From: a virus
DNA length: 18,425 nt
UHGV virus genome: UHGV-2152132
Direction: 5' to 3' (one strand)
Under the pieces are notes generated by a model. The model was given only the letters and a program-made list of their open reading frames with translations. It did not search any database and was not told the origin of the DNA. A program made the position numbers and the translations under genes. This document shows positions 1,791 to 17,742 of the stretch, piece by piece. Position 1 is the first letter of the stretch. Each line of letters starts with the position of its first letter.

Positions 1791-3336
1791 ATAGTTCCCT
1801 CACTTTCATGCGAGTAATAATTTGTAGAAGTTTATCAAGATTATCAAATCTATAGAGATCTAATCGAATGTTGTTTGTTTCCGTCATGCACATTTTATTA
1901 TATTCGTTTTCAATCTTTGGTATGATATAAAAATCAAGAGGTGAAATATTTTGTGAATTCATTCGTATAACAATTGTTATGTCTGCTTTCTGTGAGTTAT
2001 CAAACCGGACTTTCCATCTAAGTTTACCTGATTTCATATGTATGCATTTAGTAACAAGGACGGAAATTAAAAACTCATCATTGATGTAAAGCATTGGGGC
2101 ATATTTATACTCGTCTATATGACAGTTGCTTTTTAAAATTTCACCCTTAAAATCCTCAATTATCTCTGAGTAAAATGATCTTAGTGCTTCATTTATTTTG
2201 AGATAGCTGTAATCATGTTCTGGCTTATAACCAATCAAAGTATATGCTCTTAAAAGACCACCAAATCGGGTTCTATAAACAGAAGATGAAGGGCCTGTAT
2301 CATCTTCATCAATGATAAAGCCTGATAGTTTTCCATTAGATTCTAATTTTTGTTTTAGTTTTTCTAATAGATCTTCATTAGTCAAATGAATGGATCGGAG
2401 CTGAATTATTTCTTGAGCTTTATTGTATTTTTTCTTTGAAATAATAGGTTTATATGCCTTGTCACATCTAACCCATTCATGTTTGGGGTTTTTTACAAGC
2501 CTACTTTTTAATTTAGATGAGGTTTTGTTATATATGTTGTTTCCAATATATTTTTCATTTGTCAAAATTTGATGTATTTTTGCACGAGTCCATAATGTAC
2601 CATTTTCTGCAGGTATGTTCTGTTCATTTAATCTCTCAGCAATAATGAATTCTGGGACGTTATTATCTATAAAGAGATCATATATTCTATTTACAATTTT
2701 TATTTCATTTTTTGGTCCCGGAATTAATATTACCCTATCTGTTTGAATACTCTTTCTTTTGCGGAAACTCAATATTTCTTTAGCTATGCCATTTTCGTCT
2801 ACTAAAAGACGTCTCAGCCCATAACCAGCCATACCGCCTTGATGATAACCAAGCTTTATTAAATTTACTTGCCCTATAAATACCTTTTCAGATAGATTCC
2901 TGCTGTGATATGCAGCACTAGATCTTTTTATATTCAGTATAACAGAGGACTCTAAAGGGAAATCTTTAGTGGGTATAGGTTCGGAACAATATATAAGATC
3001 TACACCATTTCTCTCAAATAGAAAGGAATAATATGCCGCTTCATCACTATTTTGAAAACGACCAAAACGGCTCACATCATAAAATAATACAGCCTGTATA
3101 TCTATTTTCTTTTGTTCTACATCGCTAAGTAACTGCTGCAAAGAATGCCTGCCTACGATACTGACTCCGCTCTTACCTGAATCATCGTAGGTATAAGCGA
3201 TTTCCATATTGTTCTTTTCAGCATAATCTTTGATATATTCGGACTGATTATGTAAAGAATATTGCTGATGGTCGGTAGACATCCTCAAGTACTGCGCGAC
3301 CCTAACTCTATGATTTTTGTCATTTTCGCTAGCCAT
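1780..3336 (-). CDS. Large serine recombinase family protein (resolvase-type catalytic domain plus recombinase domain, long C-terminal extension)
   Basis: 518-aa ORF. N-terminal catalytic signature RVAQYLRMSTDHQ (Ser nucleophile context) and DDSGKSG; recombinase-domain-like GQVNLIKLGYHQGGMAGYGLRR. First gene of the operon, GAGG RBS upstream. AT-rich codon usage. Confidence 0.75.
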   Translation of the reverse strand: MASENDKNHRVRVAQYLRMSTDHQQYSLHNQSEYIKDYAEKNNMEIAYTYDDSGKSGVSIVGRHSLQQLLSDVEQKKIDIQAVLFYDVSRFGRFQNSDEAAYYSFLFERNGVDLIYCSEPIPTKDFPLESSVILNIKRSSAAYHSRNLSEKVFIGQVNLIKLGYHQGGMAGYGLRRLLVDENGIAKEILSFRKRKSIQTDRVILIPGPKNEIKIVNRIYDLFIDNNVPEFIIAERLNEQNIPAENGTLWTRAKIHQILTNEKYIGNNIYNKTSSKLKSRLVKNPKHEWVRCDKAYKPIISKKKYNKAQEIIQLRSIHLTNEDLLEKLKQKLESNGKLSGFIIDEDDTGPSSSVYRTRFGGLLRAYTLIGYKPEHDYSYLKINEALRSFYSEIIEDFKGEILKSNCHIDEYKYAPMLYINDEFLISVLVTKCIHMKSGKLRWKVRFDNSQKADITIVIRMNSQNISPLDFYIIPKIENEYNKMCMTETNNIRLDLYRFDNLDKLLQIITRMKVRELYAA

Positions 3337-3618
3337 GCACGAAACCTCATGGATGATTCAATACAATGTAGTGGATAAAATTGATCAAATTTTAACCGAA
3401 TTCAACTGTTTTATCATTGATTAGAGCGAATTTGGTAGATCTTCGAGGTGTATGATAATCGAGAAGAGATGTGAATTATTTAGCTGATATGACCGACAGC
3501 TTTCGTTATGTGGACTCAATGTCCCCATTTGTAAATGGCTATGCTTAGTCCACATAGGTTAATGGTGTGATTATTAATTCTTTAACTAAATCAAGATAGT
3601 TAATCCATCATGGGAGAG
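3337..3618 (-). promoter_or_regulatory. AT-rich leader/promoter region of the recombinase-ParB-ParB operon, containing a nested palindrome
   Basis: 282-bp non-coding gap between the integrase stop and the recombinase start. Perfect 9-bp inverted repeat ATGTGGACT (3508-3516) / AGTCCACAT (3547-3555) enclosing CCATTT-GT-AAATGG (3524-3537). No promoter hexamers confidently assigned. Confidence 0.35.
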
Positions 3619-4848
3619 TTATGCGGCAATAACTTTGCATTTTTGAGACGAAACATAGTCACTCCACCATTGCATGAGAACCACCCGTTCAGTGAGATAC
3701 TCTGCACGATTGTAGGCTGCAATTATTTCATCTTTCTTCGAGTGGGCAAGGGCGGCTTCTAAGACATCAGTCCTAAACTTGCCAGACTCCTCAGCAGCCG
3801 TTCTAGCAATGGATCGCATACCGTGAGCTACAAGCTCACCTCCGAAACCCATACGGATTATGGCCGCATTAGCTGTTTGTTCATGCATGTGATTGAGTGG
3901 AGCTTTGATACTGGGGAACACCCACTCTCTATGCCCGCTGATGACTTTCATTAAATCCAAAACTCGCAAAGCTTCTTTGCTCAGTGGAACTTTGTGAGGC
4001 TTCTTCATTTTCATAAACTCCGCCGGGATGTTCCACATGCCAGTTTCAATATCAATATCTGACCATCTTGTGCGAACAGCTTCACCTGGGCGAACCCATG
4101 TGAGAAGTTGCCACTCAATCAGTAGCCTTGTTTCCAAACGGATAGAAGCATTGTTTAGAGCAACCAAGAAGCGAGGGAGTTCGGAAGGGGGTAATGCTGG
4201 CATATTCTGTTTTTTTGGCTTGCTGAACCGTTGCCCCAGGTTGTCTGCCGGGTTGAATTCTATGAGTTCTTCTGTTGCTGCATAGCGGAAAATTTCATTC
4301 AGGCGGGATATGATGCGGCGAAGTGTTTCAAGGACACCTCGTTTTTCTATGGGTTCTAAATGCTGTTTAAGCATTTTAGGGCGAATCTCCTTAATTGGGG
4401 TATCACCCAATGTGGAAAAGATATTTCTCTCTAGGCTTCGCCAGATGTCGTTAGCATGATCTTGGGAGATGCCTGACGTTTTGACTTTCTCATCAAGCCA
4501 CTTCTTGGCTACTGCTTGAAATGTATGTTCCGTGGCATCTTTCAGTGCATTGGCTTTTTGGTTGTTATGAACTTGGGGGTCTATACCATTTGTAAGCAAC
4601 GACAAGTATTCATCACGTAAAGCTCGTGCCTTCGCAAGTGTAAGGTGAGGATAGGTTCCTAAGCTCACCTTAGTTCGCTTTTTGGTCACAGGCACTGCAT
4701 ATCTGAAATACCAATTTTTCTTCCCTCCCTTCGCCAGGGGAGCGATTCGCAACAGCAAACCATCGCCGTCAAAAAGGTTAACCTCTTTTTCGGCAGGTTT
4801 GGTGCTTTTGATTTCAGTGTCAGTGAGCTTCTTAGCGATTTTGGCCAT
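3619..4848 (-). CDS. P4-type (IntA/SlpA-like) tyrosine integrase
   Basis: ORF track gives 3619..4929 (436 aa). The probable true start is the internal Met of MAKIAKKLTDTEIKSTKP (about 4848), the typical P4-family integrase N-terminus. C-terminal catalytic residues: AHGMRSIARTAAE (H-x-x-R) and IIAAYNRAEY (Tyr nucleophile). Lies next to the ssrA 3'-end repeat, same orientation as ssrA. Confidence 0.85.
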   Translation of the reverse strand: MAKIAKKLTDTEIKSTKPAEKEVNLFDGDGLLLRIAPLAKGGKKNWYFRYAVPVTKKRTKVSLGTYPHLTLAKARALRDEYLSLLTNGIDPQVHNNQKANALKDATEHTFQAVAKKWLDEKVKTSGISQDHANDIWRSLERNIFSTLGDTPIKEIRPKMLKQHLEPIEKRGVLETLRRIISRLNEIFRYAATEELIEFNPADNLGQRFSKPKKQNMPALPPSELPRFLVALNNASIRLETRLLIEWQLLTWVRPGEAVRTRWSDIDIETGMWNIPAEFMKMKKPHKVPLSKEALRVLDLMKVISGHREWVFPSIKAPLNHMHEQTANAAIIRMGFGGELVAHGMRSIARTAAEESGKFRTDVLEAALAHSKKDEIIAAYNRAEYLTERVVLMQWWSDYVSSQKCKVIAA

Positions 4849-4944
4849 GTTTGGGACCCTCGATTTTAGGACCCATCTTCGTGGGTCCCATTCAGGGTGC
4901 CATAACTCGTAGTTCTCAGCAATTCTCACTAGACTACAATAGAC

Positions 4945-4986
4945 GTAAAAAAGCCCGCAGAGCTTGTGCTGTGCGGGCTTAGTAGA
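4945..4986 (-). terminator. Rho-independent terminator (minus strand) just downstream of the partial ssrA 3' copy
   Basis: 9-bp stem AAGCCCGCA (4951-4959) / TGCGGGCTT (4972-4980), 12-nt loop. On the minus strand the hairpin is followed by a T-run (complement of AAAAAA at 4945-4950). Confidence 0.55.
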
Positions 4987-5010
4987 CTTTACTGAACTTC
5001 AGTACATCAA

Positions 5011-5059
5011 TATTTGGTGGAGCTGGCGGGAGTTGAACCCGCGTCCGAAATTCCTACAT
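5011..5059 (-). repeat. att core: 49-bp exact direct repeat of the ssrA 3' end (partial tmRNA copy)
   Basis: tatttggtggagctggcgggagttgaacccgcgtccgaaattcctacat is identical at 5011-5059 and 17362-17410. It contains the 3'-terminal 45 nt of tmRNA; flanking bases differ. Confidence 0.9.
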
Positions 5060-5144: not shown

Positions 5145-6404
5145 TTAACTCTCCGCCGCCAAATTGCCGCCATCAGGTAGATGCTCATGCTTCATCATTT
5201 GGTGGATAAGAACTTCTACTTTTCTGAAGGTCGTATTGTCATAGTACTCAACAAGTGATTCATCGAAATCCTCTATCCAACCTTTTGCTGGGCCATTTGT
5301 TTGATATCTGACGGCAGTTGGTGAGTGGAAGTTGGGAGTAGCCTTTAAAGTGCTAAACACAGCCCATGATACTGGGTTAGTCACTTTAAATATTCTCTTC
5401 AATTCAGGGCAGTACAACGTGTTTGGTACAGTTATTCGTTCCATTTTAGGGGGTAAGATTACATTAATACCGATGTCACTATCTTTTTGATTAAGTATTT
5501 TTGTCGAACGATACGATATTCCAGAAATATCCTTGTTGCTATCACTGCTAATCCATTGCATTAATAGGTTTGGAATAATGTATTCTTTGTGAAAATTTGC
5601 ATGTTCATGATCTTTTGTATAGTTACAGGCCAATACTAAAGGCCATGCGATTAGTTTTGAAACCTTATCATTAATCGGGTCTGAGAAATCACTATAATTT
5701 TCATTGTTGTATTCATCTATGCGTTCAGGCTCAAATGAAAATGAATGCTCACTTGGAGTGGAACGTAGTGCTGACGTTAGGTTGTATCCGAGGTCTAGTA
5801 TTCTAATTTGTGATGATTCGTCTTCAGTAATAAATGATGATATATACAGCTTATCGAAATCTGGTTTTCCCATCTCTTGCCAGCAAACAAATATTGATGT
5901 CCCAAGATATAGACATGGTAAACCTGAAACTGAGAAGCGTTGTGCGCTTACCAAATGTCTTTGACTAAAAGGAATGTGGAATAATTCTTCTCTATTTTTT
6001 AGTATGTTTTCACTTTTCCTAACCCGAAATAACGGAGTTCGTCTATTACAAAGTTTTGTTAACGGAACCGTCATTTGATAAATGTGGTTCTTCATTGCTG
6101 GTGAACCTATTATAGCTTGGTTGAAAGTATTATAGGCTTCTTTAATATTACCGTTAAGATAATGGGTTAACGTTTCAGATATTTTATTGGAGAATGTTGT
6201 GATTGAAATCGATCTTTTTTTTACCTCTTTTATTGTTTCGTTGTCTGGATAGTCCTTTCTTATTTTATCAATAGCTTCAAGATAACAATCAATCCTGTTT
6301 TTAAAGTTGGATACAATGTCGCCATTGGCCTTGAATGGGGGTTGAAGTAGTTCATATTGTAATAATGAATCTGATATTTCTTTCAGTTCTGAATATTTGC
6401 GCAT
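5145..6404 (-). CDS. RES-domain-like protein (putative NAD+-targeting toxin/abortive-infection-type effector); prophage cargo between att and int
   Basis: 419-aa ORF, AT-rich relative to neighbouring phage genes. Central segment LFRVRKSENILKNREELFHIPFSQRHLVSAQRFSVSGLPCLYLGTSIFVCWQEMGKP resembles the RES-domain core (R ... G.P.LY..S....E). Starts 10 nt after the integrase stop, weak RBS, so probably co-transcribed with int. Domain call by pattern only. Confidence 0.45.
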   Translation of the reverse strand: MRKYSELKEISDSLLQYELLQPPFKANGDIVSNFKNRIDCYLEAIDKIRKDYPDNETIKEVKKRSISITTFSNKISETLTHYLNGNIKEAYNTFNQAIIGSPAMKNHIYQMTVPLTKLCNRRTPLFRVRKSENILKNREELFHIPFSQRHLVSAQRFSVSGLPCLYLGTSIFVCWQEMGKPDFDKLYISSFITEDESSQIRILDLGYNLTSALRSTPSEHSFSFEPERIDEYNNENYSDFSDPINDKVSKLIAWPLVLACNYTKDHEHANFHKEYIIPNLLMQWISSDSNKDISGISYRSTKILNQKDSDIGINVILPPKMERITVPNTLYCPELKRIFKVTNPVSWAVFSTLKATPNFHSPTAVRYQTNGPAKGWIEDFDESLVEYYDNTTFRKVEVLIHQMMKHEHLPDGGNLAAES

Positions 6405-6414
6405 GAGAATTATT

Positions 6415-7431
6415 TCAATTAAGGTTGATTAATGGATTCTTAGTCACAGCATCTTCGAGATGTTCTGGAGAAAAATGTGCATATATCATTGTCATTTTAA
6501 TATCAGTGTGACCCAAGATTTCTTTAAGTACCAGTATGTTTCCGCCGTTCATCATAAAGTGACTGGCGAATGTATGACGCAGAACGTGGGTACATTGACC
6601 TTCCGGCAGCTCAATACCGGCCCTCTTTACTGCTCGTTCAAAAGCTTTTCTGCATGGAGTGAATAATTTTCCTCTCTTTTTGGGGAGTTCGTCATACAGA
6701 TCCTGTGATATTGGCACTGTTCTGTTTTTCTTGCCCTTAGTCTTGGTGTAAGTGATGCGGTATTTTGACAACTGGTGTCCCTGTAGGTTTTCGGCTTCAC
6801 TCCATCGCGCGCCGGTGGCCAGGCAGATTTTTGTAATCAAAAGCAGGCTGGGGCTTTGAGAATCAGCGCAGGCATCCAGCAGACGTTTAATTTCTTCCGG
6901 GGTCAGGAACGCCAGTTCACCCTCAGCAATTTTAAATGTTGGCAGCCCGGCAAGTGGGTTGGGGGCTGACCAATGGCCCAGCTTTTTCAGTGTACCAAAT
7001 ACCGATGATAGGTTACGCTGTTCAAGGTTTACCGTGCGGGGCTTAACGGGCGACATAAGCGTGCCATCTTCATTTCGCACTTCACCTTTTAGCCGTGCTT
7101 CGCGGTATTTCGTAAAGTCACCGGCTGTCAGTTCTGAGGCGATGGGATCGCCTAGACCATTACAGATAATTTTAAGTTTCGCCATGAGGCGCTTGGGGTC
7201 TGCGAGTGTCTGACCGTACAGGGAATACCAAAGCTCAATTAATTCTGATAGGCGTCGCCGATCATCCTTTTCTCCTAACCACGGTTTTTTGTTCACTTCT
7301 TCCATTGTGAAGCTTTCAAACGCAATAGCTTCGCCTTTGGTAGCAAATTGCTTACGCACGCGCTTGCCATTGCGTCCATTGGGATAGCACTCACACAACC
7401 ATTTTCCGTTCGGCTGTTTTCTGATGGTCAT
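6415..7431 (-). CDS. int: P2/186-family tyrosine integrase
   Basis: 338-aa ORF with catalytic motifs ATGARWSEA (Arg), HVLRHTFASH (His-x-x-Arg) and MIYAHF (Tyr). Position next to the CI-type repressor is typical of P2-like phages. Confidence 0.88.
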   Translation of the reverse strand: MTIRKQPNGKWLCECYPNGRNGKRVRKQFATKGEAIAFESFTMEEVNKKPWLGEKDDRRRLSELIELWYSLYGQTLADPKRLMAKLKIICNGLGDPIASELTAGDFTKYREARLKGEVRNEDGTLMSPVKPRTVNLEQRNLSSVFGTLKKLGHWSAPNPLAGLPTFKIAEGELAFLTPEEIKRLLDACADSQSPSLLLITKICLATGARWSEAENLQGHQLSKYRITYTKTKGKKNRTVPISQDLYDELPKKRGKLFTPCRKAFERAVKRAGIELPEGQCTHVLRHTFASHFMMNGGNILVLKEILGHTDIKMTMIYAHFSPEHLEDAVTKNPLINLN

Positions 7432-7432
7432 T

Positions 7433-8065
7433 TCAAAGGCTCTTAATGATTTTCAGTGCGCGGCCTACTACCTCAATGTCATCCAGGCCGCACTCAAACG
7501 ATGAATCATCCTGATGCACTACTAATTTGTTTCCCGGGAGTCGAGTCAATTTAACGATGCTTTTTATCCCGTCGATATCGACTAACCACATACCATTTAC
7601 TGGTGGTGTTTGGTTGCGATCTATTAAATAAGAATCACCAGAAGTAGTCACCAGCAGTAGGTTGCTTGAGTCTGAGGGGAGTATGCTGCTATCAATGATT
7701 GCTTTTCCAGCATCGACCAATAAACCACCGTTGAGAGTCGCCTTGTCAATTTCAGGAGATACTAGTTCAGAAAGAGGTACAACCTTGCTGGAGTTCACGG
7801 AATTGATATTTTTTTTAGGTTCAATGTTTGGACCTGGCTCCCCCTGTCCGGTGGTTAGCCACAGTAAAGAAACTCCTGTTTCCAAGGCGCACTGAATCAC
7901 CCACTCTGCAGGAAAACTATCTCTTAAGTATCTGTTTGCCATGGTGCTTTTTGATGCGCCTAAGTGATCGCAAAGTTGCTGTCTGGACTTGAAATCATAG
8001 GCTGCCATTAGTCTATGGATAGCCTCTCTTCCCCCTGTATTCTCTCCAACCTTTACCTGTATCAT
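7433..8065 (-). CDS. 186-type CI immunity repressor
   Basis: 210-aa ORF. N-terminal HTH region SRQQLCDHLGASKSTMANRYLRD and the segment QCALETGVSLLWLTTGQGEP, characteristic of phage 186/PSP3/Fels-2 CI. Divergent from the apl/cII-like genes across an operator-bearing gap. Confidence 0.75.
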   Translation of the reverse strand: MIQVKVGENTGGREAIHRLMAAYDFKSRQQLCDHLGASKSTMANRYLRDSFPAEWVIQCALETGVSLLWLTTGQGEPGPNIEPKKNINSVNSSKVVPLSELVSPEIDKATLNGGLLVDAGKAIIDSSILPSDSSNLLLVTTSGDSYLIDRNQTPPVNGMWLVDIDGIKSIVKLTRLPGNKLVVHQDDSSFECGLDDIEVVGRALKIIKSL

Positions 8066-8184
8066 TTTTTAATCCTGTTGACGTATCAAATATTGGATCG
8101 TAGTATCTCGATGTATCAAATATTGAATCAAGTAAAACGAGATAAAACGACGTAAACCAAACCTTAATCGGGAGATACTGCACT
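8066..8184. promoter_or_regulatory. Divergent switch region (pR/pL-like) with direct-repeat operator candidates
   Basis: 17-bp direct repeat GTATCAAATATTG(G/A)ATC at 8083-8099 and 8113-8129, 30 bp centre to centre. Rightward sigma70-like promoter TTGACG (8077-8082), 18-bp spacer, TAGTAT (8101-8106); the first repeat overlaps its spacer. Confidence 0.5.
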
Positions 8185-8427
8185 ATGAGCACTGATATTT
8201 CAATTCGTGTACCAAAAGAGATGGCTACGCCTGCAGAGTTCGCGGAATGGGAAGGTATCTCCCGCGGCTCCGTGTATCAAAAAATTCACCATGGTCAGCT
8301 TGCTAAATACATGGTCAAGAAAGAAAAAAACAAAGGCCGCGTAAGCCTGCGTTATTTAATGTACAAAACCGATCAGGTCCGTGAATCCCTCGGTCATTCC
8401 AACTTCCGCGTCATTGTTGGTAAGTAA
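8185..8427 (+). CDS. Apl/Cox-like small HTH protein (excisionase/transcriptional regulator)
   Basis: 80-aa ORF, first gene rightward from the switch region. HTH-like ATPAEFAEWEGISRGSVYQKIHHGQL. GGAG RBS about 10 nt upstream. Confidence 0.5.
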   Translation: MSTDISIRVPKEMATPAEFAEWEGISRGSVYQKIHHGQLAKYMVKKEKNKGRVSLRYLMYKTDQVRESLGHSNFRVIVGK

Positions 8428-8459: not shown

Positions 8460-8855
8460 ATGTTTGATTATAAGATTTCCAAACACCCGCATTTTGATGA
8501 AGCCTGTAGAGCTTTTGCACTTCGTCACAATATGGCGAAGCTGGCAGAACGTGCAGGAATGAATGTCCAGACTCTGCGAAACAAACTCAACCCAGATCAA
8601 CCGCATCAGCTCAATGCGCCAGATATCTGGCTACTTACCGATCTGACGGAAGATTCAACGCTGGTAGACGGTTTTCTGGCACAGATTCACTGCCTGCCAT
8701 GTGTACCGATTAATGAGGTGGCAAAAGAGAAACTGCCACATTACGTCATGAGTGCAACCGCAGAGATCGGGCGTGTTGCTGCAGGTGCGGTATCCGTTCC
8801 GACGTTCCTCGTTGCCGCTTCTCCCAAACCAACGTTTAAGAAAATGCAGAGGTAA
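8460..8855 (+). CDS. CII-like phage regulatory protein (186 CII family), possibly C-terminally altered
   Basis: 131-aa ORF. N-terminal MFDYKISKHPHFDEACRAFALRHNMAKLAERAGMNVQTLRNKLNPDQ resembles 186-type CII. AAGGGGG RBS. Gene ends 38 bp before the invertase, where the normal early-region genes are missing. Confidence 0.55.
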   Translation: MFDYKISKHPHFDEACRAFALRHNMAKLAERAGMNVQTLRNKLNPDQPHQLNAPDIWLLTDLTEDSTLVDGFLAQIHCLPCVPINEVAKEKLPHYVMSATAEIGRVAAGAVSVPTFLVAASPKPTFKKMQR

Positions 8856-8899
8856 CAGCTAACTGGCATCATCTCCGGTTTTTATTCAGGGGGATGATC

Positions 8900-9466
8900 A
8901 TGCTTATTGGCTATGTACGCGTGTCAACAAATGACCAGAACACCGATTTGCAACGTAATGCACTGAACTGCGCGGGATGTGAGCAGATTTTTGAGGACAA
9001 AATCAGTGGCACTAAGTCCGACAGACCGGGGCTGAAAAAACTACTCAGGACACTATCGGCAGGAGACACGCTGGTTGTCTGGAAGCTGGACAGGTTGGGG
9101 CGCAGTATGCGGCATCTTGTTACGCTGATAGAAGAGTTGCGCCAGCGTGGTGTGAATTTCAGAAGCCTGACTGACAGTATTGATACCAGTACCCCAATGG
9201 GCCGTTTCTTTTTTCATGTCATGGGTGCCCTGGCTGAAATGGAACGCGAACTGATAGTTGAACGTACCAGGGCAGGGCTGGCTGCAGCTCGTGCCAAAGG
9301 CAGAGTAGGTGGACGCCGTCCTAAGTTGACCACCGAACAGTGGGCACAGATTGGGCGTTTACTCGAGGCCGGAGAATCAAGACAGCGTATTGCACTGATT
9401 TTTGATGTAGGCGTTTCTACCATTTATAGAAAATTTCCGGCAAATAAGATCAATGAATCCCCCTGA
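8900..9466 (+). CDS. Site-specific DNA invertase, Gin/Pin/Cin/Hin family (small serine recombinase)
   Basis: Starts MLIGYVRVSTNDQNTDLQRNAL...GDTLVVWKLDRLGRSM...SPMGRFFFHVMGALAEMERELI, the canonical invertase sequence, with C-terminal HTH. ORF track starts at 8894 (MIM...); ATG 8900 has better spacing from AGGGGG (8888-8893). Confidence 0.92.
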   Translation: MLIGYVRVSTNDQNTDLQRNALNCAGCEQIFEDKISGTKSDRPGLKKLLRTLSAGDTLVVWKLDRLGRSMRHLVTLIEELRQRGVNFRSLTDSIDTSTPMGRFFFHVMGALAEMERELIVERTRAGLAAARAKGRVGGRRPKLTTEQWAQIGRLLEAGESRQRIALIFDVGVSTIYRKFPANKINESP

Positions 9467-9514
9467 ATCAGCATTATGTTGATTATCCCTGCAAGCAGAC
9501 AAATACCGTTATTT

Positions 9515-9532
9515 TGTGTGAATAACGACACA
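9515..9532 (+). promoter_or_regulatory. P2-type late promoter activator site (TGT-N12-ACA dyad) upstream of FI
   Basis: TGT (9515-9517), 12 nt, ACA (9530-9532), inside a near-perfect dyad TTGTGTG...GACACAA, about 85 bp upstream of the FI start. P2-family late promoters carry this Ogr-dependent element near -55. Confidence 0.5.
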
Positions 9533-9608
9533 ACTGCGCTTAGCTGTTTGTCAGGCACAATCACTTCAACATAGGGCGAAGCCTAATCCAATCAGGAGGT
9601 TCGCCACT

Positions 9609-10781
9609 ATGGCTCAGGATTACCACCACGGGGTGCGCGTTGTTGAAGTCAACGAAGGCACCCGATCTATTACCACGGTGAGCACCGCCATCGTGGGTAT
9701 GGTCTGCACGGGCGATGATGCCGATGCAAAAATGTTTCCTCTTAATAAACCCGTGCTGATCACTGATGTGCTGACTGCCAGCGGTAAAGCGGGTGAGTCA
9801 GGTACTCTGGCCCGTTCGCTGGATGCCATCGCTGACCAGGCAAAACCCGTGACCATTGTTGTGCGTGTGCCGCAGGGTGAAACGGAAGACGAAACCACGA
9901 CCAATATCATCGGCGCAGTGACTGCTGAAGGTAAAAAAACAGGTATGAAAGCCCTGTTATCTGCCCAGTCACAGCTCGGCGTTAAACCGCGCATTCTCGG
10001 CGTGCCAGGCCACGACACCAAGGCGGTAGCTACTGAGTTGCTGAGCGTGGCGCAAAGCCTGCGTGGATTTGCTTACCTGTCAGCGTATGGCTGCAAGACA
10101 GTGCAGGAGGCGATCACTTACCGCGAAAACTTCAGCCAGCGCGAAGGGATGCTGATCTGGCCTGACTTTACTGGCTGGGACACGGTGCTGAATGCCGAAG
10201 CAACGGCATATGCCACCGCCCGTGCGCTTGGTCTGCGCGCCAAAATTGACGAGCAGACCGGATGGCACAAAAGCCTGTCCAACGTGGGCGTGAACGGTGT
10301 CACCGGAATTTCTGCAGATGTGTTCTGGGATCTGCAGGACCCGGCAACCGATGCAGGTCTGCTGAACCAGAACGACGTCACCACGCTTGTGCGTAAAGAC
10401 GGTTTCCGCTTCTGGGGTTCCCGCTGCCTGAGTGATGACCCGCTCTTTGCCTTCGAAAACTACACCCGCACGGCGCAGGTGCTGATGGACACGATGGCAG
10501 AAGCACACATGTGGGCGGTGGATAAACCGCTTAACCCGTCGCTGGCCCGCGACATTATCGAAGGTATCCGCGCCAAAATGCGCAGCCTGGTCAGTCAGGG
10601 CTATCTCATTGGTGGTGATTGCTGGCTGGATGAGTCGGTGAACGACAAAGACACGCTGAAAGCCGGAAAACTCACCATCGACTACGACTACACGCCAGTG
10701 CCGCCACTTGAAAACCTGATGCTGCGTCAGCGCATCACCGATCAGTACCTGGTGAATTTCGCCAGCCAGGTCAGCGCGTAA
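9609..10781 (+). CDS. FI: Contractile tail sheath protein (P2 gpFI homolog)
   Basis: 390-aa ORF starting [40 protein letters not shown], typical gpFI N-terminus. CAGGAGG RBS. Followed by FII-E-T-U-D in P2 order. Confidence 0.9.
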
Positions 10782-10790
10782 GGGGACAAC

Positions 10791-11306
10791 ATGGCTTTAC
10801 CACGCAAATTAAAACACCTGAACCTGTTTAACGACGGGAACAACTGGCAGGGGATCGTTGAATCGCTGACGCTGCCGAAATTTACCCGCAAATATGAGAA
10901 GTATCGCGGCGGCGGAATGCCGGGTGCGGTGGATGTGGATCTGGGGCTTGATGACAGTGCGCTGGACACAGAATTTTCCATTGGTGGTACTGAATTGCTG
11001 CTGTTTAAACAGATGGGTAAAGCCACGGTGGATGGCATCCAGCTGCGCTTTACCGGCTCTATTCAGCGTGACGATACCGGGGAAGTGCAGGCCGTGGAGC
11101 TTGTCGTGCGTGGACGTCACAAAGAAGTGGATTCCGGCGAGTGGAAGACGGGCGAAAGCAACACCACCAAAGTGACCAGTACCAACAGCTACGCGAAGCT
11201 GACCATCAATGGTGAGGTGCTCTATGAAGTGGACCTTATCAACATGGTGGAAATTGTGGACGGTGTGGACCTGATGGAAGCGCACCGCAACGCCCTCGGC
11301 CTCTGA
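10791..11306 (+). CDS. FII: Tail tube protein (P2 gpFII homolog)
   Basis: 171-aa ORF, MALPRKLKHLNLFNDGNNWQG...RFTGSIQRDDTGE, immediately after FI. Confidence 0.9.
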   Translation: MALPRKLKHLNLFNDGNNWQGIVESLTLPKFTRKYEKYRGGGMPGAVDVDLGLDDSALDTEFSIGGTELLLFKQMGKATVDGIQLRFTGSIQRDDTGEVQAVELVVRGRHKEVDSGEWKTGESNTTKVTSTNSYAKLTINGEVLYEVDLINMVEIVDGVDLMEAHRNALGL

Positions 11307-11360
11307 TATATCTGAACGGCGCGGGATACCGCGCCAGAACCCAATTGACAGGACAGCAAA

Positions 11361-11663
11361 ATGAGCGATAAGCAGACTGAAAAGACCATTCAACTGGATA
11401 CCCCCATCAAGCGCGGTAAAACAGAAATCACCGAAATTGTGCTGCGTAAACCGCAGTCCGGTGCGCTGCGCGGTACACGCCTGCAGGCCATTATGGATAT
11501 GGATGTAAACGCGATGATGACCGTGATCCCCCGCATCTCCAGTCCGGCACTGACTGCACAGGAAATTGCAGAGATGGACCCGGCAGATCTCACTGCCATG
11601 TCGGTTGAGGTTGTCACTTTTTTGTTGAAGAAGTCGGTGCTTGCCGGTTTACCGACAGCCTGA
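11361..11663 (+). CDS. E: Tail assembly chaperone gpE (unshifted product)
   Basis: 100-aa ORF between FII and T. Contains the slippery heptamer T TTT TTG near its 3' end. Confidence 0.8.
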   Translation: MSDKQTEKTIQLDTPIKRGKTEITEIVLRKPQSGALRGTRLQAIMDMDVNAMMTVIPRISSPALTAQEIAEMDPADLTAMSVEVVTFLLKKSVLAGLPTA

Positions 11664-11797
11664 CGGTTGACGATCTGGTGGCAGATATCGCCACCATTTT
11701 TCACTGGCCGCCATCCGTTACTGACGTTATGCCGCTGACCGAAGTGCTGGAATGGCGGTATAAAGCGATTCAGAGAAGCGGGGCCAACGATGAGTGA
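11361..11797 (+). CDS. Tail assembly chaperone E+E' (predicted -1 programmed frameshift product)
   Basis: Slippery site TTTTTTG at about 11618-11624. The -1 frame is open from there to TGA at 11795-11797, giving an extension ...DDLVADIATIFHWPPSVTDVMPLTEVLEWRYKAIQRSGANDE that overlaps the T start by 8 nt. Confidence 0.6.
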
Positions 11798-14700
11798 TAA
11801 CAACCTGCGTCTGCAGGTCATTCTTAATGCGGTTGACAAGCTCACCCGCCCATTTCGATCTGCGCAGGCCAGTTCAAGAGAACTGGCTGCTGCTGTCAAA
11901 AAATCCCGCGATGCAATAAAGCAGCTTGATCAGGCCGGGAGCAGTCTGGACAGCTTCCGAAAGCTGCAGGCAGAAAATCAGAAATTAGGCGACAGGCTGA
12001 ACTATGCCCGCCAGCGTGCAAATTTGCTCAGTCAGGAACTGGGAGCGATGGGGCCGCCTTCGCAACGTCAGGTTGTTGCTCTGGGCCGTCAACGGCTGGC
12101 TGTTCAGCGCCTGGAAGAACGCCAGAAAAAGCTGCAGCAGCAGACGGCGCTTGTGCGTGCTGAACTGTACCGGGCGGGAATTTCTGCGAAAGACGATGCG
12201 GGAGCAACTGCCCGTTTAGCCCGTGAAACATCACGTTATAACCAGGAACTTTCGAAACAGGAGGCGCGGCTGAAGCGACTGGGGGAAGCTCAGCGCAGGA
12301 TGAATGCAGCGCGTGCCAGTTATGCCCGTTCGCTGGAGGTGCGTGATCGTATTGCAGGTGCCGGAGCCACCACCACGGCTGCAGGGCTGGCAATGGGTGC
12401 GCCAGTGATGGCGGCAGTAAAAAGCTATACCAGCATGGAAGATGCCATGAAAGGTGTGGCAAAGCAGGTCAATGGTCTGCGTGACGATAATGGCAACCGC
12501 ACTGCACGTTTTTATGAAATGCAGGATGCCATCAAGGCTGCCAGCGAACAGTTGCCGATGGAAAACGGTGCGGTGGACTTCGCTGCACTGGTTGAAGGTG
12601 GTGCGCGCATGAACGTCGCAAACCCTGACGACAGCTGGGAAGATCAGAAACGTGACCTGCTGGCCTTCGCCAGTACGGCAGCAAAGGCGGCAACAGCCTT
12701 TGAGCTGCCAGCGGATGAACTGTCAGAAAGTCTGGGGAAAATCGCCCAGCTCTACAAAATCCCCACCCGCAATATTGAACAGCTCGGTGATGCGCTGAAC
12801 TATCTGGATGATAACGCCATGTCGAAAGGGGCAGACATCATTGATGTGATGCAACGTCTGGGCGGTGTGGCTGACCGTCTGGATTATCGTAAAGCGGCGG
12901 CGCTGGGTTCCACCTTCCTGACACTGGGCGCTGCGCCAGAGGTTGCAGCCAGTGCAGCAAACGCGATGGTGCGTGAATTGTCCATTGCCACCATGCAAAG
13001 CAAGAGTTTCTTTGAAGGGATGAATCTGCTGAAACTCAATCCTGAAGTGATTGAAAAGCAGATGACGAAGGATGCGATGGGAACCATCCAGCGCGTGCTG
13101 GAGAAGGTAAACGCGCTGCCGCAGGACAAGCGCCTGTCTGCCATGACTATGTTGTTTGGTAAAGAGTTTGGCGATGACGCGGCGAAACTGGCAAACAACC
13201 TGCCGGAACTGCAGCGTCAGTTAAAACTGACAGCGGGCAATGATGCGCTTGGCTCCATGCAAAAAGAATCCGACATTAACAAGGATTCACTTTCTGCGCA
13301 GTGGTTGCTGGTCAAAACCGGAGCGCAGAACACCTTCAGCAGCCTGGGCGAAACGCTGCGCCAGCCGCTGATGGATATTCTGTACACGGTGAAAAGCGTC
13401 ACGGGGGCGTTGCGTCGCTGGGTGGAAGCTAACCCGGAACTGACAGGCACACTGATGAAAGCATCGGCTGTTGTGGCTGCGGTTACCGTCGGCCTCGGCA
13501 CCTTAGCGGTGGCGCTGGCTGCAGTGCTGGGGCCGCTGGCAGTGATCCGTCTGGGATTCTCTGTGTTGGGTATCAAAACGTTATCTTCCGTTACGGCAGC
13601 AGTAACTCGAACCAGCAGCGCGTTGTCCTGGCTGGCTGGCGCACCACTGGCACTGCTGCGACGCGGGCTTGCTTCATCGGGCAACGCCGCAGGTTTACTT
13701 ACTGCGCCGTTGTCGTCTTTGCGCCGCACGGCATCACTGACGGGAAATGTCCTGAAAACTGTAGCAGGTGCGCCGGTTGCACTTTTGCGGTCTGGATTAT
13801 CCGGTTTACGTGCTGTTGCTGTGATGTTTATGAATCCTCTGGCGGTACTGCGCGGTGGACTGGCCGCCGCAGGCACGGTGCTGCGAGTACTGGCATCTGG
13901 TCCACTGGCGATGCTGCGCGTTGCCCTGTATGCCATATCTGGTCTGTTAGGTGCTCTGCTCAGTCCGATAGGTCTTGTGGTTACTGCACTGGCGGGCGTG
14001 GCGCTGGTTGTCTGGAAATACTGGCAACCCATCACCGCATTTCTCGGTGGCGTGGTGGAAGGATTCAAAGCGGCGGCAGGTCCCATCAGTGCAGCGTTCG
14101 AACCGCTTAAGCCCGTGTTCCAGTGGATTGGCGACAAAGTGCAGGCGCTGTGGGGCTGGTTTACTGATCTGCTGACGCCCGTTAAGTCGACCTCTGCCGA
14201 ACTGCAGAGCGCAGCGGCAATGGGGCGGCGATTCGGGGAGGCACTGGCGGAAGGGCTGAATATGGTCATGCATCCGCTGGACTCCCTGAAATCCGGCGTT
14301 TCCTGGTTGCTGGAGAAGCTCGGCATTGTCAGTAAAGAGGCCGCAAAGGCAAAACTGCCGGAAAGCGTGACGCGTCAGCAACCTGCGACGGTGAATGCAG
14401 ACGGTAAAGTGATGATGCCATCGGGTGGTTTTCCATCATGGGGATATGGCTTTGCGGGGATGTATGACAGCGGCGGGTATATCCCGCGCGGGCAGTTTGG
14501 CATCGTCGGTGAAAACGGGCCGGAAATTGTTAACGGCCCGGCAAATGTGACCAGCCGGAGAAATACAGCTGCACTGGCTGCCGTTGTTGCCGGAATGATG
14601 GGCGTTGCTGCCGCGCCAGCAGAGCTTCCACCGTTGCACCCCTTGGCACTTCCCGCGAAAGGTGGAGAAGCAATTGTGAGTCGCGCAGCCACTGTGCCAC

Positions 14701-14867
14701 TCGTTCAACGGATTGAGGCACCGACGCAGATCATCATTCAGACGCAGCCAGGACAAAGTGCGCAGGATATTGCGCGGGAGGTGGCACGCCAGCTTGATGA
14801 ACGTGAACGCAGGCTGAAGGCAAAAGCCAGGAGTAACTACAGCGATCAGGGGGGATACGACGCATGA
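11790..14867 (+). CDS. T: Tail tape measure protein (P2 gpT homolog)
   Basis: 1025-aa ORF in the expected position. N-terminal coiled-coil-like region, central Ala/Gly/Leu-rich hydrophobic region with tandem PLAxLRxGL-type repeats, C-terminal Gly-rich region. Confidence 0.9.
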   Translation: MSDNNLRLQVILNAVDKLTRPFRSAQASSRELAAAVKKSRDAIKQLDQAGSSLDSFRKLQAENQKLGDRLNYARQRANLLSQELGAMGPPSQRQVVALGRQRLAVQRLEERQKKLQQQTALVRAELYRAGISAKDDAGATARLARETSRYNQELSKQEARLKRLGEAQRRMNAARASYARSLEVRDRIAGAGATTTAAGLAMGAPVMAAVKSYTSMEDAMKGVAKQVNGLRDDNGNRTARFYEMQDAIKAASEQLPMENGAVDFAALVEGGARMNVANPDDSWEDQKRDLLAFASTAAKAATAFELPADELSESLGKIAQLYKIPTRNIEQLGDALNYLDDNAMSKGADIIDVMQRLGGVADRLDYRKAAALGSTFLTLGAAPEVAASAANAMVRELSIATMQSKSFFEGMNLLKLNPEVIEKQMTKDAMGTIQRVLEKVNALPQDKRLSAMTMLFGKEFGDDAAKLANNLPELQRQLKLTAGNDALGSMQKESDINKDSLSAQWLLVKTGAQNTFSSLGETLRQPLMDILYTVKSVTGALRRWVEANPELTGTLMKASAVVAAVTVGLGTLAVALAAVLGPLAVIRLGFSVLGIKTLSSVTAAVTRTSSALSWLAGAPLALLRRGLASSGNAAGLLTAPLSSLRRTASLTGNVLKTVAGAPVALLRSGLSGLRAVAVMFMNPLAVLRGGLAAAGTVLRVLASGPLAMLRVALYAISGLLGALLSPIGLVVTALAGVALVVWKYWQPITAFLGGVVEGFKAAAGPISAAFEPLKPVFQWIGDKVQALWGWFTDLLTPVKSTSAELQSAAAMGRRFGEALAEGLNMVMHPLDSLKSGVSWLLEKLGIVSKEAAKAKLPESVTRQQPATVNADGKVMMPSGGFPSWGYGFAGMYDSGGYIPRGQFGIVGENGPEIVNGPANVTSRRNTAALAAVVAGMMGVAAAPAELPPLHPLALPAKGGEAIVSRAATVPLVQRIEAPTQIIIQTQPGQSAQDIAREVARQLDERERRLKAKARSNYSDQGGYDA

Positions 14868-15349
14868 TGATGGTGCTGGGATTGTACGTGTTTATGCTGC
14901 GCACCGTTCCGTATCAGGAACTGCAGTATCAACGCAGCTGGCGACATGCGGCAAACAGTCGGGTAAACCGACGTCCGTCCACGCAGTTTCTGGGACCGGA
15001 AAACGACATGCTGACGCTTTCCGGTGTTCTTATGCCGGAAATAACAGGCGGCAGGCTGTCGTTGCTGGCACTGGAGCAGATGGCAGAACAGGGGAAAGCA
15101 TGGCCCCTGATTGAAGGCAGCGGCACGATTTACGGCATGTATGTGATTGAGGGACTGAATCAGACTAAAACGGAGTTTTTCCGCGACGGTATGCCGCGCC
15201 GGATTGAGTTCACCCTGTCGCTCAAACGAGTGGATGAATCCCTGTCCGATATGTTCGGTGATCTCAGTGCGCAACTGAATAATCTGCAGGACACGGCAAC
15301 GTCTGCCTTAAGCGATATCAGTAAAACGGTGGGAGGGCTGCTGTCGTGA
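14864..15349 (+). CDS. U: Tail protein gpU homolog
   Basis: 161-aa ORF, MMMVLGLYVFMLRTVPYQELQYQRSWRH..., ATGA-type overlap with the T stop. Confidence 0.88.
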   Translation: MMMVLGLYVFMLRTVPYQELQYQRSWRHAANSRVNRRPSTQFLGPENDMLTLSGVLMPEITGGRLSLLALEQMAEQGKAWPLIEGSGTIYGMYVIEGLNQTKTEFFRDGMPRRIEFTLSLKRVDESLSDMFGDLSAQLNNLQDTATSALSDISKTVGGLLS

Positions 15350-16446: not shown

Positions 16447-16514
16447 AGTGTTCTCAATATTGATATTTTGTGTATCATTACAATGATTCTGATAGCAAAG
16501 GTAGGGATCTGGAT

Positions 16515-16733
16515 ATGATGAATTGTCCAAAGTGTGGTCATGCGGCACACACAAGGAGCAGTTTTCAAGTAACTGAAAGCACCAAAGAGCGTTACTGCCA
16601 GTGCCAAAATATTAACTGCGGGAGCACTTTTGTTACCCATGAAACAGTGGTCCGGTTTATTGTGACACCCGCACTGATTGCTACTGCTCCTCCACATCCA
16701 TTGCCAGGTGGTCAGGGGCATATGAATTTTTGA
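16515..16733 (+). CDS. ogr: Ogr/Delta-family zinc-finger late transcription activator
   Basis: MNCPKCGHAAHTRSSFQVTESTKERYCQCQNINCGSTFVTHETVVRFIVTP, with the four-Cys C-x2-C ... C-x4-C arrangement of P2 Ogr. ORF track starts at 16470; the ATG at 16515 (MMNCPKC) fits Ogr length. Confidence 0.85.
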   Translation: MMNCPKCGHAAHTRSSFQVTESTKERYCQCQNINCGSTFVTHETVVRFIVTPALIATAPPHPLPGGQGHMNF

Positions 16734-16741
16734 GAAAGAGA

Positions 16742-16763
16742 ACCTGCTACGGCAGGTTTTTAT
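16742..16763 (+). terminator. Rho-independent terminator after ogr
   Basis: Stem ACCTGC (16742-16747) / GCAGGT (16752-16757), 4-nt loop, followed by TTTTTAT on the plus strand. Confidence 0.6.
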
Positions 16764-17242: not shown

Positions 17243-17320
17243 GTGAAACCTCTTTGCATGATTTCAAGAGGGCGACAGGCAAGATAGACGCAAAAGTCTG
17301 TCGCCATTTTGCCGCCACTA

Positions 17321-17360
17321 CCAAAGAAAAAGGGGCTACGCTTTCACGTAACCCCTTGTT
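17321..17360 (-). terminator. ssrA rho-independent terminator (prophage-supplied side of att)
   Basis: On the minus strand, just 3' of the tmRNA end: hairpin GGGGTTACG / CGTAGCCCC with 6-nt loop (plus-strand 17332-17355, one mismatch), followed by TTTTTCTTT. Confidence 0.65.
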
Positions 17361-17361
17361 T

Positions 17362-17728: not shown

Positions 17729-17742
17729 AATGTGTAAAGGTA

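Follow-up and report, generated by a model that had tools for sequence, protein, structure and literature searches.

The window, by which we mean the whole 18,425-nt stretch of DNA analysed here, carries the remnant of a P2-like prophage. Its features are the following.

5011-5059: attL of the remnant, read from the sequence as a 49-nt exact direct repeat of 17362-17410; this 49-bp copy of the ssrA 3' end doubles as the boundary to the upstream island
6415-7431, minus strand: P2-family integrase, 338 aa (ORF; homologues annotated as site-specific integrase)
7433-8065, minus strand: CI repressor, 210 aa (ORF; Pfam Phage_CI_repr and Phage_CI_C)
8185-8427, plus strand: apl/cox-like excisionase-repressor, 80 aa (ORF)
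8460-8855, plus strand: chimeric cII' ORF, 131 aa (DNA identity to cII of E. coli H2; Pfam PF06892)
8788-8794: deletion joint with microhomology CGGTATC (three-way comparison of the window, H2 cII and the E. coli A357 fibre segment)
8789-8872, minus strand: remnant of an alternate tail-fibre C-terminal segment (Sv'), first 28 codons
8819-8844: complete 26-bp pix/gix-type crossover site, the right-hand one of the two inverted repeats around the lost invertible segment
8861-8890, plus strand: conserved leader of the invertase, in which a stem and a T-run resemble a terminator (consensus scan; identity in aligned intact relatives)
8900-9466, plus strand: Gin/Pin-family serine DNA invertase, intact, 188 aa (alternative start at 8894)
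9515-9532, plus strand: TGT-N12-ACA upstream of FI, a predicted P2-type late-promoter activator site (read from the sequence)
9609-16446, plus strand: intact tail block from FI to D (ungapped alignment to phage 500465-1), made up of the next seven ORFs, named after the 500465-1 annotation
9609-10781, plus strand: FI, sheath
10791-11306, plus strand: FII, tube
11361-11663, plus strand: E
11678-11797, plus strand: E'
11790-14867, plus strand: T, tape measure
14864-15349, plus strand: U
15346-16446, plus strand: D
16515-16733, plus strand: ogr/delta-type late activator (ORF; homologue annotated as ogr/Delta-like zinc finger)
16760-17242, minus strand: BRCT-domain cargo gene between ogr and attR (ORF; relatives annotated as BRCT domain-containing protein)
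17362-17410: attR, the 3' end of the functional ssrA (direct repeat with attL)
17366-17728, minus strand: ssrA tmRNA (ARAGORN)

On L010, where both the joint and the gene order are those of the window, the integrase counterpart contains the Pfam domains Int_N and Phage_integrase, and the apl/cox-like ORF matches the SEN8 excisionase and 186 apl in size and position. The only tail genes in the window are FI, FII, E/E', T, U and D. FI begins 142 bp past the end of the invertase gene, and the FI-D-ogr block aligns to phage 500465-1 over 8587 nt without gaps at 99.87% identity; the ogr homologue sits within a stretch that is 100% identical in E. coli Z1323PEC0012. Of the intact late regulatory circuit that the original prediction had described, ogr lies at 16515-16733 and TGT-N12-ACA at 9515-9532, and the FI-D-ogr block is undamaged. 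The TGT-N12-ACA motif falls in sequence 99.87% identical to intact phages, and we take it, from established P2 biology, to be the site at which the late activator would act.

Aligning the window to complete relatives, as had been proposed for mapping the breakpoints, yielded both parental sequences and placed the joint at 8788-8794. The nearest relative is a near-complete prophage of E. coli Z1323PEC0012 that occupies this same site in ssrA, with the neighbouring genes of the window (flanking island, partial ssrA, int and, further on, ogr, the BRCT gene, ssrA and smpB). Between the two points that meet in the window, Z1323PEC0012 has about 17 kb with a full cII and the replication, packaging, baseplate and fibre genes. 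The genes expected there from P2/186-like genomes are present in this relative, and the proposed large internal deletion that left a tail-only remnant is borne out. Measured in a complete phage, the deletion would probably come to about 20 kb. The window has none of the genes for replication (A), for packaging and the capsid (Q, P, O, N, M, L), or for lysis, the baseplate and the fibres; these replication-to-fibre genes are all present in Z1323PEC0012, 01G17CRGN001 and C2. The right arm (8814-18425) is 99.87% identical both to Z1323PEC0012 and to phage 500465-1, from 8788 rightwards the sequence is identical with the fibre segment of E. coli A357, and the left arm matches intact cII exactly through 8794. 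Besides fil and the end of cII, the deletion removed the replication genes (A among them), the genes for packaging, capsid, lysis, baseplate and fibres, and most of the invertible segment. The invertase, its right-hand crossover site in full, the predicted late promoter of FI and the FI-D-ogr block are bystanders, native DNA without alteration.

The same adjacency in intact phages had been named as the sign of a different genome architecture. Queries spanning the cII-invertase joint were covered to at least 80% in none of 50,697 phage records and in none of 5,426 complete E. coli genomes, so that this refutation fails, and the exact joint is likewise absent from species-representative genomes. 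Its absence from all complete E. coli and species-representative genomes could also be read as a mark of an assembly chimera, or of a native architecture in which nothing was deleted. We regard this reading as most improbable: the exact 131-aa chimeric protein is recorded on three contigs, including one from a human-gut metagenome on which the genes come in the same order, and the junction is for that reason not an accident of assembly. Moreover, complete prophages contain near-identical copies of both arms with some 17 kb in between, and the remnant has no gene at all for replication, heads, baseplate or lysis. Since baseplate, fibre, capsid, replication and antirepressor genes are missing and CI is intact, the remnant is probably silent today and unable to function as a particle.

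The joint lies inside the cII' ORF, 61 bp upstream of its stop codon and 24 bp inside the invertible segment, and not in the spacer between cII' and the invertase. The length given for that spacer, 38-44 bp, was correct, with 38 bp to the ATG at 8894 and 44 bp to 8900, the start annotated in homologues. At the DNA level, cII' agrees with the intact cII of E. coli H2 at every position up to nt 8794 (100% identity) and diverges from there on, and the protein is unrelated beyond this point. The divergent C-terminus that had been noticed (...GRVAAGAVSVPTFLVAASPKPTFKKMQR) accordingly reflects a match to the intact 169-aa CII through residue 112 only: residues 1-112 are native 186-type CII, residues 113-131 are the antisense of the fibre segment and crossover site, and the last 57 native residues are gone, so that the product falls short of the full length of about 169 aa although its N-terminal domain still matches PF06892. 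In A357 the fibre segment reads ...CCCGGTATCCGTTCCGACG... at the joint. The minus-strand translation of the Sv' remnant, MMPVSCYLCIFLNVGLGEAATRNVGTDT, matches the N-terminus of the A357 gp53-like protein, and the remnant occupies the position of the minus-strand fibre ORFs of intact relatives. The three-way comparison thus demonstrates the joint, at which cII (codons 110-112) shares the 7-nt microhomology CGGTATC with the alternate fibre segment on the minus strand, at the 5' end of that segment. The crossover took place within these seven nucleotides, linking cII codons 110-112 to the fibre-segment 5' end.

The gene to the right of the joint encodes a 188-aa protein that begins MLIGYVRVSTNDQ and contains the Pfam domains Resolvase and HTH_7. 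Residues 1-184 align to the Mu Gin structures 3UJ3 and 4M6F (E=3e-93, a full-length match), which places it in the Gin/Hin/Pin/Cin family of serine recombinases of about 190 aa with an N-terminal catalytic domain (Ser in the YxRVST motif) and a C-terminal HTH. The gene belongs to the right arm, with its 99.87% identity to phage 500465-1. Its cognate crossover site lies beside it at 8819-8844 and reads TTCTCCCAAACCAACGTTTAAGAAAA, a complete 26-mer with one mismatch to the 12-2-12 family consensus; it occurs as a single exact copy in the 18.4-kb window, with 0 expected by chance. The original prediction had instead seen a resemblance to one half of a gix/hix-type site at 8875-8890. That sequence, CCGGTTTTTATTCAGG, was misidentified: it belongs to the conserved invertase leader, is identical in all aligned intact relatives and overlaps the terminator-like stem and T-run at 8861-8890. 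In phage 500465-1 the 26-mer is one arm of an inverted repeat whose partner lies inside fibre gene H. A search for the partner in the window found no second site matching TTNTCNNAAACCNNGGTTTNNGANAA at up to 3 mismatches besides 8819-8844; rather than two inverted sites flanking an invertible segment there is one, the partner and the segment having been deleted. The position of the invertase directly before FI had been read as part of the joint. The order is as described, but it is native: phage 500465-1 has it, and so do the E. coli prophages of C2, RM10809-3, A357 and Z1323PEC0012; feature names at the matches in Cartapus and KP12 suggest the same order.

An intact Gin-type invertase with one crossover site next to the joint invites the explanation, raised as a possibility in the original prediction, that the enzyme itself made the deletion, here by recombining this site with a pseudo-site in cII, and by eye intact cII does have, about 20 bp downstream of the breakpoint, an AAAAACC that weakly resembles a half-site. 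Exchange by a serine invertase takes place at the central dinucleotide of its crossover site. An invertase-made deletion would consequently show its joint at this dinucleotide and one foreign half-site, whereas 36 bp separate the joint from the core (8831-8832), both half-sites are intact and the 24 bp to their left (8795-8818) are native fibre-segment interior, not derived from cII. In addition, the cII breakpoint sequence has almost nothing in common with the 12-2-12 consensus, and prophages with no invertase beside the joint (BL21, L128-L130) are broken at the same place. The non-involvement of the crossover site is demonstrated by these findings, the likelihood of this explanation is vanishingly small, and the invertase idea can be dropped.

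The unexpected finding is the position of the left breakpoint. It is cII codon 111, GCGG-TA-TCTGG with the break after TA, and the same nucleotide-precise breakpoint recurs in dozens of other prophage remnants. Using a protein search ranked by similarity to residues 1-111, and hence blind to breakpoints upstream of the hotspot and to leftward deletions, we found about 50 distinct cII fusion proteins, with residue 112 the first divergent residue in 38 and divergence scattered over residues 116-168 in the remaining ten or so. Other, independent joints at the hotspot were seen at the DNA level in BL21(DE3) (cII'::A'), in the sheep isolates ECL27977 and ECL27829 and in metagenome and IMG/VR contigs. 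About 4.5% of the cII-bearing complete E. coli genomes are broken at or near the hotspot, and likewise of the scanned metagenome contigs. Intact cII alleles with GTA, GTG and GTT were all found; the phage 186 counterpart of the hotspot sequence is GGTGCGGTATCTGATG. Literature searches found no description of the hotspot.

We mapped 33 right ends, most of them inferred from protein tails placed on reference prophages and not from the actual parents. All 33 lie downstream on the plus strand, with no inversions, and they are spread over the early genes through A, the terminase-scaffold region, the baseplate genes, the invertase, FI, E, T, U and D. The crossover dinucleotide of the partner is TA in 25/33, against a background of 4.1% (p=1.6e-28), and products that carry TT or TG have partners with TT or TG likewise. 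When the TA partners were compared with 1944 background TA sites, G was enriched at +4 (17/25, p=1e-5), as were G at -4 and C at +2 (14/25 and p=0.003 for each); the enriched positions agree with the cII site, GGTATCTG. Matches that reach more than 2 nt leftwards occur at about the chance rate. With these statistics the hotspot is demonstrated, and we describe it as a recurrent, strand-specific site GCGG-T(A/G/T)-TCTGG in 186-type cII, with a break before TCTGG, from which deletions extend rightwards to many different sites that share the crossover dinucleotide.

Taken alone, the joint in the window is an ordinary scar of routine prophage decay. A perfect 7-nt microhomology is typical of RecA-independent illegitimate recombination, and the event could have been a one-off deletion by replication slippage or end joining at CGGTATC that met the hotspot by coincidence, with no site-specific process at work; the hotspot, moreover, resembles neither gpA nick sites, the pix/gix site, Chi nor a hairpin, and no enzyme could be assigned to it. 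We think this improbable. The crossover interval 8788-8794 contains exactly the TA (8791-8792) that is used by the other joints, and 38 of the roughly 50 fusion proteins break at the same codon. An unrelated event would fall within this interval of about 8 nt with a chance of about 1-2% for the 510-nt gene, and with a far smaller one if the entire early region is considered. As the left breakpoint of the window coincides with a recurrent strand-specific hotspot, it is not random. In our judgement, the cII-invertase adjacency is likely the joint of a single deletion within a P2/186/Fels-2-like prophage integrated at ssrA of E. coli, with its left end on the hotspot.

As to how such deletions arise, some activity specific for the cII position may join it to weakly similar downstream G-N-T-A-N-C-N-G sites through the 2-nt overlap, either by a sequence-specific strand break or by strand transfer. 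One possibility that we consider somewhat doubtful is that a site-specific nick or replication arrest fixes a 3' end at ...GCGGTA, which then primes downstream via about 2 nt by template switching, with no recombinase. The exclusively same-strand deletions fit this. So do the filler in ECL27977 (a 129-bp ISEc22 fragment) and the second jump in L125, a pattern that suits template switching better than a recombinase, and the reciprocal arrangement (a foreign left flank with the right half of the site) had no match in IMG/VR. On the other hand, there is no hairpin or other fork-stalling structure (z about 0), longer terminal pairing to the left is not favoured, annealing of a 3' end leaves the non-contiguous enrichment on the far side (+2 C, +4 G) unexplained, and we know of no nickase with the specificity of the hotspot. 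We favour a protein-directed event over simple annealing. More specifically, and only tentatively, we propose that a widely conserved recombinase- or transposase-like enzyme with a 2-bp stagger, or a site-specific nickase, acts at GCGG-TN-TCTGG, codon 111, and so grounds prophages. If true, 186/Fels-2-type prophages in E. coli, Salmonella and relatives would have a dedicated route to grounding, the same activity would have made the BL21 remnant, that in the window and dozens more, and it might perhaps lie behind the A/G/T polymorphism at the crossover base.

Several candidates for the agent were tried and set aside. For gpA, an HUH initiator, acting at a pseudo-origin, the annotated P2 and 186 nick sites and the ori of this group have no meaningful similarity to GCAGGTGCGGTATCTGGCG, and gene A has no second copy of the hotspot. 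Protection of the left end by Chi was rejected, there being no GCTGGTGG within the scanned prophage stretches (the single match, at L007 35011, is flanking host DNA). The Chi-like octamer GCAGGTGC beside the hotspot has 2 mismatches and is too common to account for one hotspot; such 2-mismatch octamers number 7 in cII and 279 in a 26-kb prophage stretch without being hotspots. A hairpin or quasi-palindrome that stalls replication would show in the fold energies, and these are no better than those of shuffles on both strands, phage 186 included. A TA-specific transposase of the IS630/mariner type is disfavoured by the TT and TG joints with their matching partners and intact alleles. No inverted copy of the left flank was found that would mark a cryptic element, and insertion in place of deletion was discarded, as the right flank does not reappear further downstream in any remnant locus. 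By eye, the hotspot has no resemblance to a pix/gix-like site. Staggered cuts of 4 or 6 nt, as by a type II topoisomerase or a tyrosine recombinase with a symmetric overlap, predict products with the partner's base at -3, and on comparison by eye all products keep the G of GCGG. XerC/dif has GGTGCG in common with the site, but the XerD arm is missing and the cleavage position is 2 nt off, again by eye. As a lead rather than evidence concerning phage Int, the carriers span two integrase/att types, yet all have the arm-type motif TGYCGCCAYTT, and the bottom strand of intact cII beside the hotspot reads CATCGCCAGAT.

Prophage domestication is usually pictured as deletion at random followed by selection. 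Here, within one widespread phage family, a substantial fraction of the independent deletions share a starting dinucleotide and a direction and follow a 2-nt matching rule. The hotspot provides a sequence signature for spotting such deletions, and its pattern points to a specific molecular process for which the standard strains BL21 and REL606 could be used. The orphan invertase, in turn, could act in trans on other prophages of its host cell, at their invertible segments or pseudo-sites, because, judging from its gene, it is intact and retains one crossover site.

Like the Gin, Cin, Pin and Hin systems (Mu G, P1 C, e14 P), the invertase of the window has a 26-bp 12-2-12 site, about 55 bp upstream, and the Wadgaonvirus phage 500465-1 has a homologous invertible module, directly before FI as in the window. 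In contrast to Mu G, P1 C and e14 P, the window keeps one of the two inverted sites, and with the segment and the fibre gene gone there is nothing to invert. As in cryptic P2-family remnants and R-type tailocins, a contiguous block of sheath, tube, tape measure, U and D genes is kept together with an ogr-type activator by att; the window nevertheless differs from an R-type tailocin in having no baseplate genes (V, W, J, I), fibre genes (H, G), tail-completion genes (R, S) or lysis genes. The remnant may be comparable to the ogrK-D' remnant of K-12. The hotspot itself has counterparts among deletion hotspots with one fixed end, such as the nick sites of rolling-circle origins (M13, pC194), terB, and the Int-promoted lambda deletions from att, in which one end keeps to a single nucleotide and the others vary, with little homology and in a single orientation. 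The cII hotspot shares with these the fixed endpoint, the variable partners, the scant homology and the one orientation. It differs in being neither a gpA nick site nor an att core, in having no Ter-like or hairpin barrier, and in its allele-matching 2-nt overlap and weak partner consensus, features that to our knowledge have not been described for these cases.

The closest parallel is the defective P2-like prophage of E. coli B. In BL21(DE3) it differs from the remnant described here in integrase, immunity type and integration site, and its deletion is short, with a right end inside the replication gene A and no invertase at the joint. REL606, like BL21, carries a product of the hotspot. At about 875,190 of BL21(DE3) (NC_012971.2), cII is cut at the identical GCGG-TA and joined to same-strand downstream phage DNA at a TA preceded by GCGGG, and int, CI and apl are kept, as they are in the window.

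The coordinates of the original prediction are correct: the cII-like ORF (cII') runs to 8855, the invertase begins at 8894 or 8900 and FI at 9609, and the TGT-N12-ACA site lies at 9515-9532. The deletion joint, which had been placed in the gap between cII' and the invertase, is actually inside the cII-like ORF. The left arm is a 100% match to intact cII genes through nt 8794 and divergent beyond. On the right, 8814-18425 is 99.87% identical both to E. coli Z1323PEC0012 and, in an ungapped alignment, to phage 500465-1; E. coli A357 has another variant of the fibre segment, to which the window is identical from 8788 onward. Across the breakpoint, intact cII reads ...GGTGCGGTATCTGGCG, the A357 fibre segment ...GCCCGGTATCCGTTCC and the window ...GGTGCGGTATCCGTTCC. 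Since cII matches up to 8794 and the A357 segment from 8788, the joint is a 7-nt microhomology, CGGTATC, at 8788-8794. Its position within the ORF explains the foreign 19-residue tail of cII'. The proposal of a large deletion is borne out, as both arms match relatives and Z1323PEC0012, which has the same neighbourhood, holds about 17 kb between the two joined points (full cII, fil, replication genes, portal, terminase, baseplate, fibre H, two assembly genes and an alternate fibre end). The capsid-lysis block is missing from the Z1323PEC0012 prophage itself; the loss from a complete parent would therefore be about 20 kb. Queries spanning the joint reached 80% coverage in none of 50,697 phage records and none of 5,426 complete E. 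coli genomes.

The window derives from E. coli: 16400-18425 (ogr, the BRCT-domain gene, ssrA and smpB) is 100% identical to strain Z1323PEC0012, and 1-5059 to E. coli C. Two 49-bp repeats enclose a P2-family element with the order 419-aa gene, int, CI, apl, cII-like ORF, invertase, FI, FII, E/E', T, U, D, ogr and BRCT gene. The features are as follows.

1-897 and 894-1790: two ParB/RepB-like genes of the left island
1780-3336: 518-aa large serine recombinase of the left island
3619-4929: CP4-57-type integrase of the left island
5011-5059 and 17362-17410: 49-bp sequence repeat of the tmRNA gene 3' end
5145-6404, minus strand: 419-aa ORF between attL and int, no Pfam hit on record
8080-8099 and 8110-8129: direct repeat of 20 nt, GAYGTATCAAATATTGRATC, its two copies 30 nt apart, between CI and apl
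16760-17242, minus strand: 160-aa BRCT-domain gene between ogr and attR
17366-17728, minus strand: tmRNA gene (ssrA), by ARAGORN

To the left of the P2-family element, a separate island (1-5059) sits in the duplicated ssrA end; it is present in the same form in about 22 complete E. coli genomes. The slot of the 419-aa ORF looks like a cargo or defence slot, because related prophages carry different genes there (dCTP deaminase, KAP NTPase or further hypotheticals). The BRCT-domain gene is retained in many ssrA prophages and labelled 'DNA ligase' in the annotation of phage 500465-1; some other relatives have a reverse transcriptase or an IS3 insertion in its place. The 20-nt direct repeats probably serve as operators for the repressor or for Apl.

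Over its full length the invertase is homologous to Gin (E=3e-93 to 3UJ3; Resolvase plus HTH_7). Phage 500465-1 and the prophages of E. coli C2, RM10809-3, A357 and Z1323PEC0012 all show one gene order: H, assembly gene, inverted assembly gene, inverted alternate fibre end, invertase, FI. Invertase-then-FI is therefore the native order, and not, as had been thought, a product of the deletion. The inverted repeat of the invertible segment of phage 500465-1 is TTCTCACATACCTTGGTTTGGGAGAAG / CTTCTCCCAAACCAACGTTTAAGAAAA. Its second arm is intact at window 8819-8844 and is the sole crossover site of this type in the window; the stretch at 8875-8890, taken for half a gix/hix site, belongs to the conserved invertase leader. 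A deletion made by the invertase, as had been suggested, would have its joint at the core dinucleotide (8831-8832), but the real joint is 36 bp further left and the crossover site is whole, with both half-sites and 24 bp of the segment interior still present. The invertase is thus a bystander of the deletion.

As predicted, ogr and the promoter region of FI are undamaged, and so is the tail block. The deletion removed the genes for baseplate, fibres, tail completion, capsid, lysis, replication and antirepressor, but CI is intact. Judged by gene content, the cluster would be unable to form a particle or tailocin alone, and it is probably repressed. The invertase, intact with its own leader and one site, could work in trans on invertible segments of other prophages.

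The breakpoint in cII is recurrent, and the genes of 186 type contain a nucleotide-precise, one-directional deletion hotspot. Its position and the principal named joints are given here.

Window 8791-8792: hotspot, the last two bases of Val111 (cII codon 111); in intact copies, e.g. 4362-4363 of comparison locus L006
ECL27977 (L002), 11030-11505: remnant joint
BL21(DE3) (L131), NC_012971.2 871110-879194: defective P2-like prophage of E. coli B, joint near locus position 4080

From a 90% protein cluster of cII' and a homology search, a protein approach blind to breakpoints upstream of residue 111 and to leftward deletions, we obtained about 50 different cII fusions. The first divergent residue was 112 in 38, 113 in 8 and 114 in 6, with natural linker variants making up part of the last two groups; about 10 fusions had breaks scattered over residues 116-168. 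The tails are read-through, in or out of frame, into downstream phage genes (A, DinI/Tum, the terminase-scaffold region, baseplate genes, invertase, FI, E', T, U and D). We placed 33 distinct right ends on reference prophages or read them straight from contigs, most being deduced from protein tails on related prophages, and all 33 were on the cII strand. In no remnant locus does the right half of cII reappear at a downstream position; these are therefore deletions, and insertion is ruled out. A joint of this kind was present in 5 of about 110 cII-bearing metagenome contigs, and the cII segment was broken at or near the hotspot in 57 of the 1265 complete E. coli genomes carrying it, BL21(DE3) among the 57; the two frequencies are similar. 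Some joints, e.g. the BL21 type, may be identical by descent. The hotspot is undescribed in the literature searched, where coverage of older P2 and 186 papers is thin.

The sheep isolates ECL27977 and ECL27829 harbor a second tail-only remnant at ssrA, with a cII break at most 1 nt from the same position. Here cII runs through TATCT into an internal 129-bp ISEc22 (IS66-family) fragment and then the FI start codon, which in ECL27977 is preceded by about 11 bases of unassigned origin; the ECL27977 remnant has neither the invertase nor the FI promoter, and its joint looks like filler-DNA capture. In BL21(DE3), cII' runs into replication gene A, the joint reading GCGG-TA-GCTGAGCC where the parent of A has GCGGG-TA-GCTGAGCC; the same joint occurs in a metagenome contig (L013) and an IMG/VR contig (L124). 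The E. coli B prophage also holds a retron. In another IMG/VR contig (L125), the sequence jumps again, by about 0.9 kb inside the packaging-capsid region, about 136 nt past the hotspot joint; the two changes may have arisen together in a complex event or one after the other.

The partner dinucleotide 5' of the joint was TA in 25 of 33 cases (TT 3, TG 2, AA 2, GA 1), whereas TA makes up 4.1% of prophage dinucleotides (p=1.6e-28). Loci with TT joints (L127, L128) or a TG joint (L129) had TT or TG partners, the 2-nt crossover agreeing with the local allele (TA, TT or TG). Intact cII alleles of codon 111, as GTA:GTG:GTT, numbered 91:13:4 and 105:10:3 in two sets; in two scans (loci L011-L252), the base at window 8792 was A in 196, G in 23, T in 7 and never C, within otherwise identical 45-nt contexts. 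This polymorphism may be synonymous variation of the usual kind or may be left behind by the hotspot process. Against a background of 1944 TA sites, partners had G at +4 in 17/25 (p=1e-5), and G at -4 and C at +2 in 14/25 each (each p=0.003). The resulting consensus, G-N-T-A-N-C-N-G, is weak; the cII site, GGTATCTG, matches all five specified positions. Leftward matches past the dinucleotide occurred at about chance frequency, and rightward contiguous matches (TC...) appeared, by informal impression, somewhat above it. In all products the -3 base came from cII and the +1 base from the partner, which fits a stagger of at most 2 nt but not a symmetric 4-nt or 6-nt overlap. The window's CGGTATC includes the hotspot TA, and its partner, CGG-TA-TCCG, matches at T, A and C at +2, plus G at -3. 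With good confidence, we regard the window's joint as one more product of the hotspot process; the main rival, an unrelated slippage event at this microhomology, is improbable.

Several candidate agents were rejected. The nick sites of gpA are dissimilar to the hotspot, which has no resemblance to pix/gix either; Chi is absent from the prophage (Chi-like octamers with 2 mismatches are common), and secondary structure at the hotspot is not above background. Integrase and immunity each come in two types among hotspot carriers, and therefore the agent is either supplied by the host or a phage function that is conserved. The non-contiguous partner consensus, together with the lack of gain from longer leftward homology, argues for protein recognition, while the filler DNA of ECL27977 and the double jump of L125 favour template switching that starts at a fixed 3' end; under either, the absence of inversions argues for a strand-specific process. 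A possible lead on the agent comes from tandem arm-type TGYCGCCAYTT motifs near att, which both integrase types use: such motifs, 11 nt apart, lie beside the att sites at window 5154-5175 and 17299-17320 and at 895-916 of the BL21(DE3) locus. One motif of similar sequence, CATCGCCAGAT, abuts the hotspot on the bottom strand of intact cII. The window and BL21(DE3) motifs resemble the annotated arm-type integrase sites of phage 186, YAYCGCCAYTY.
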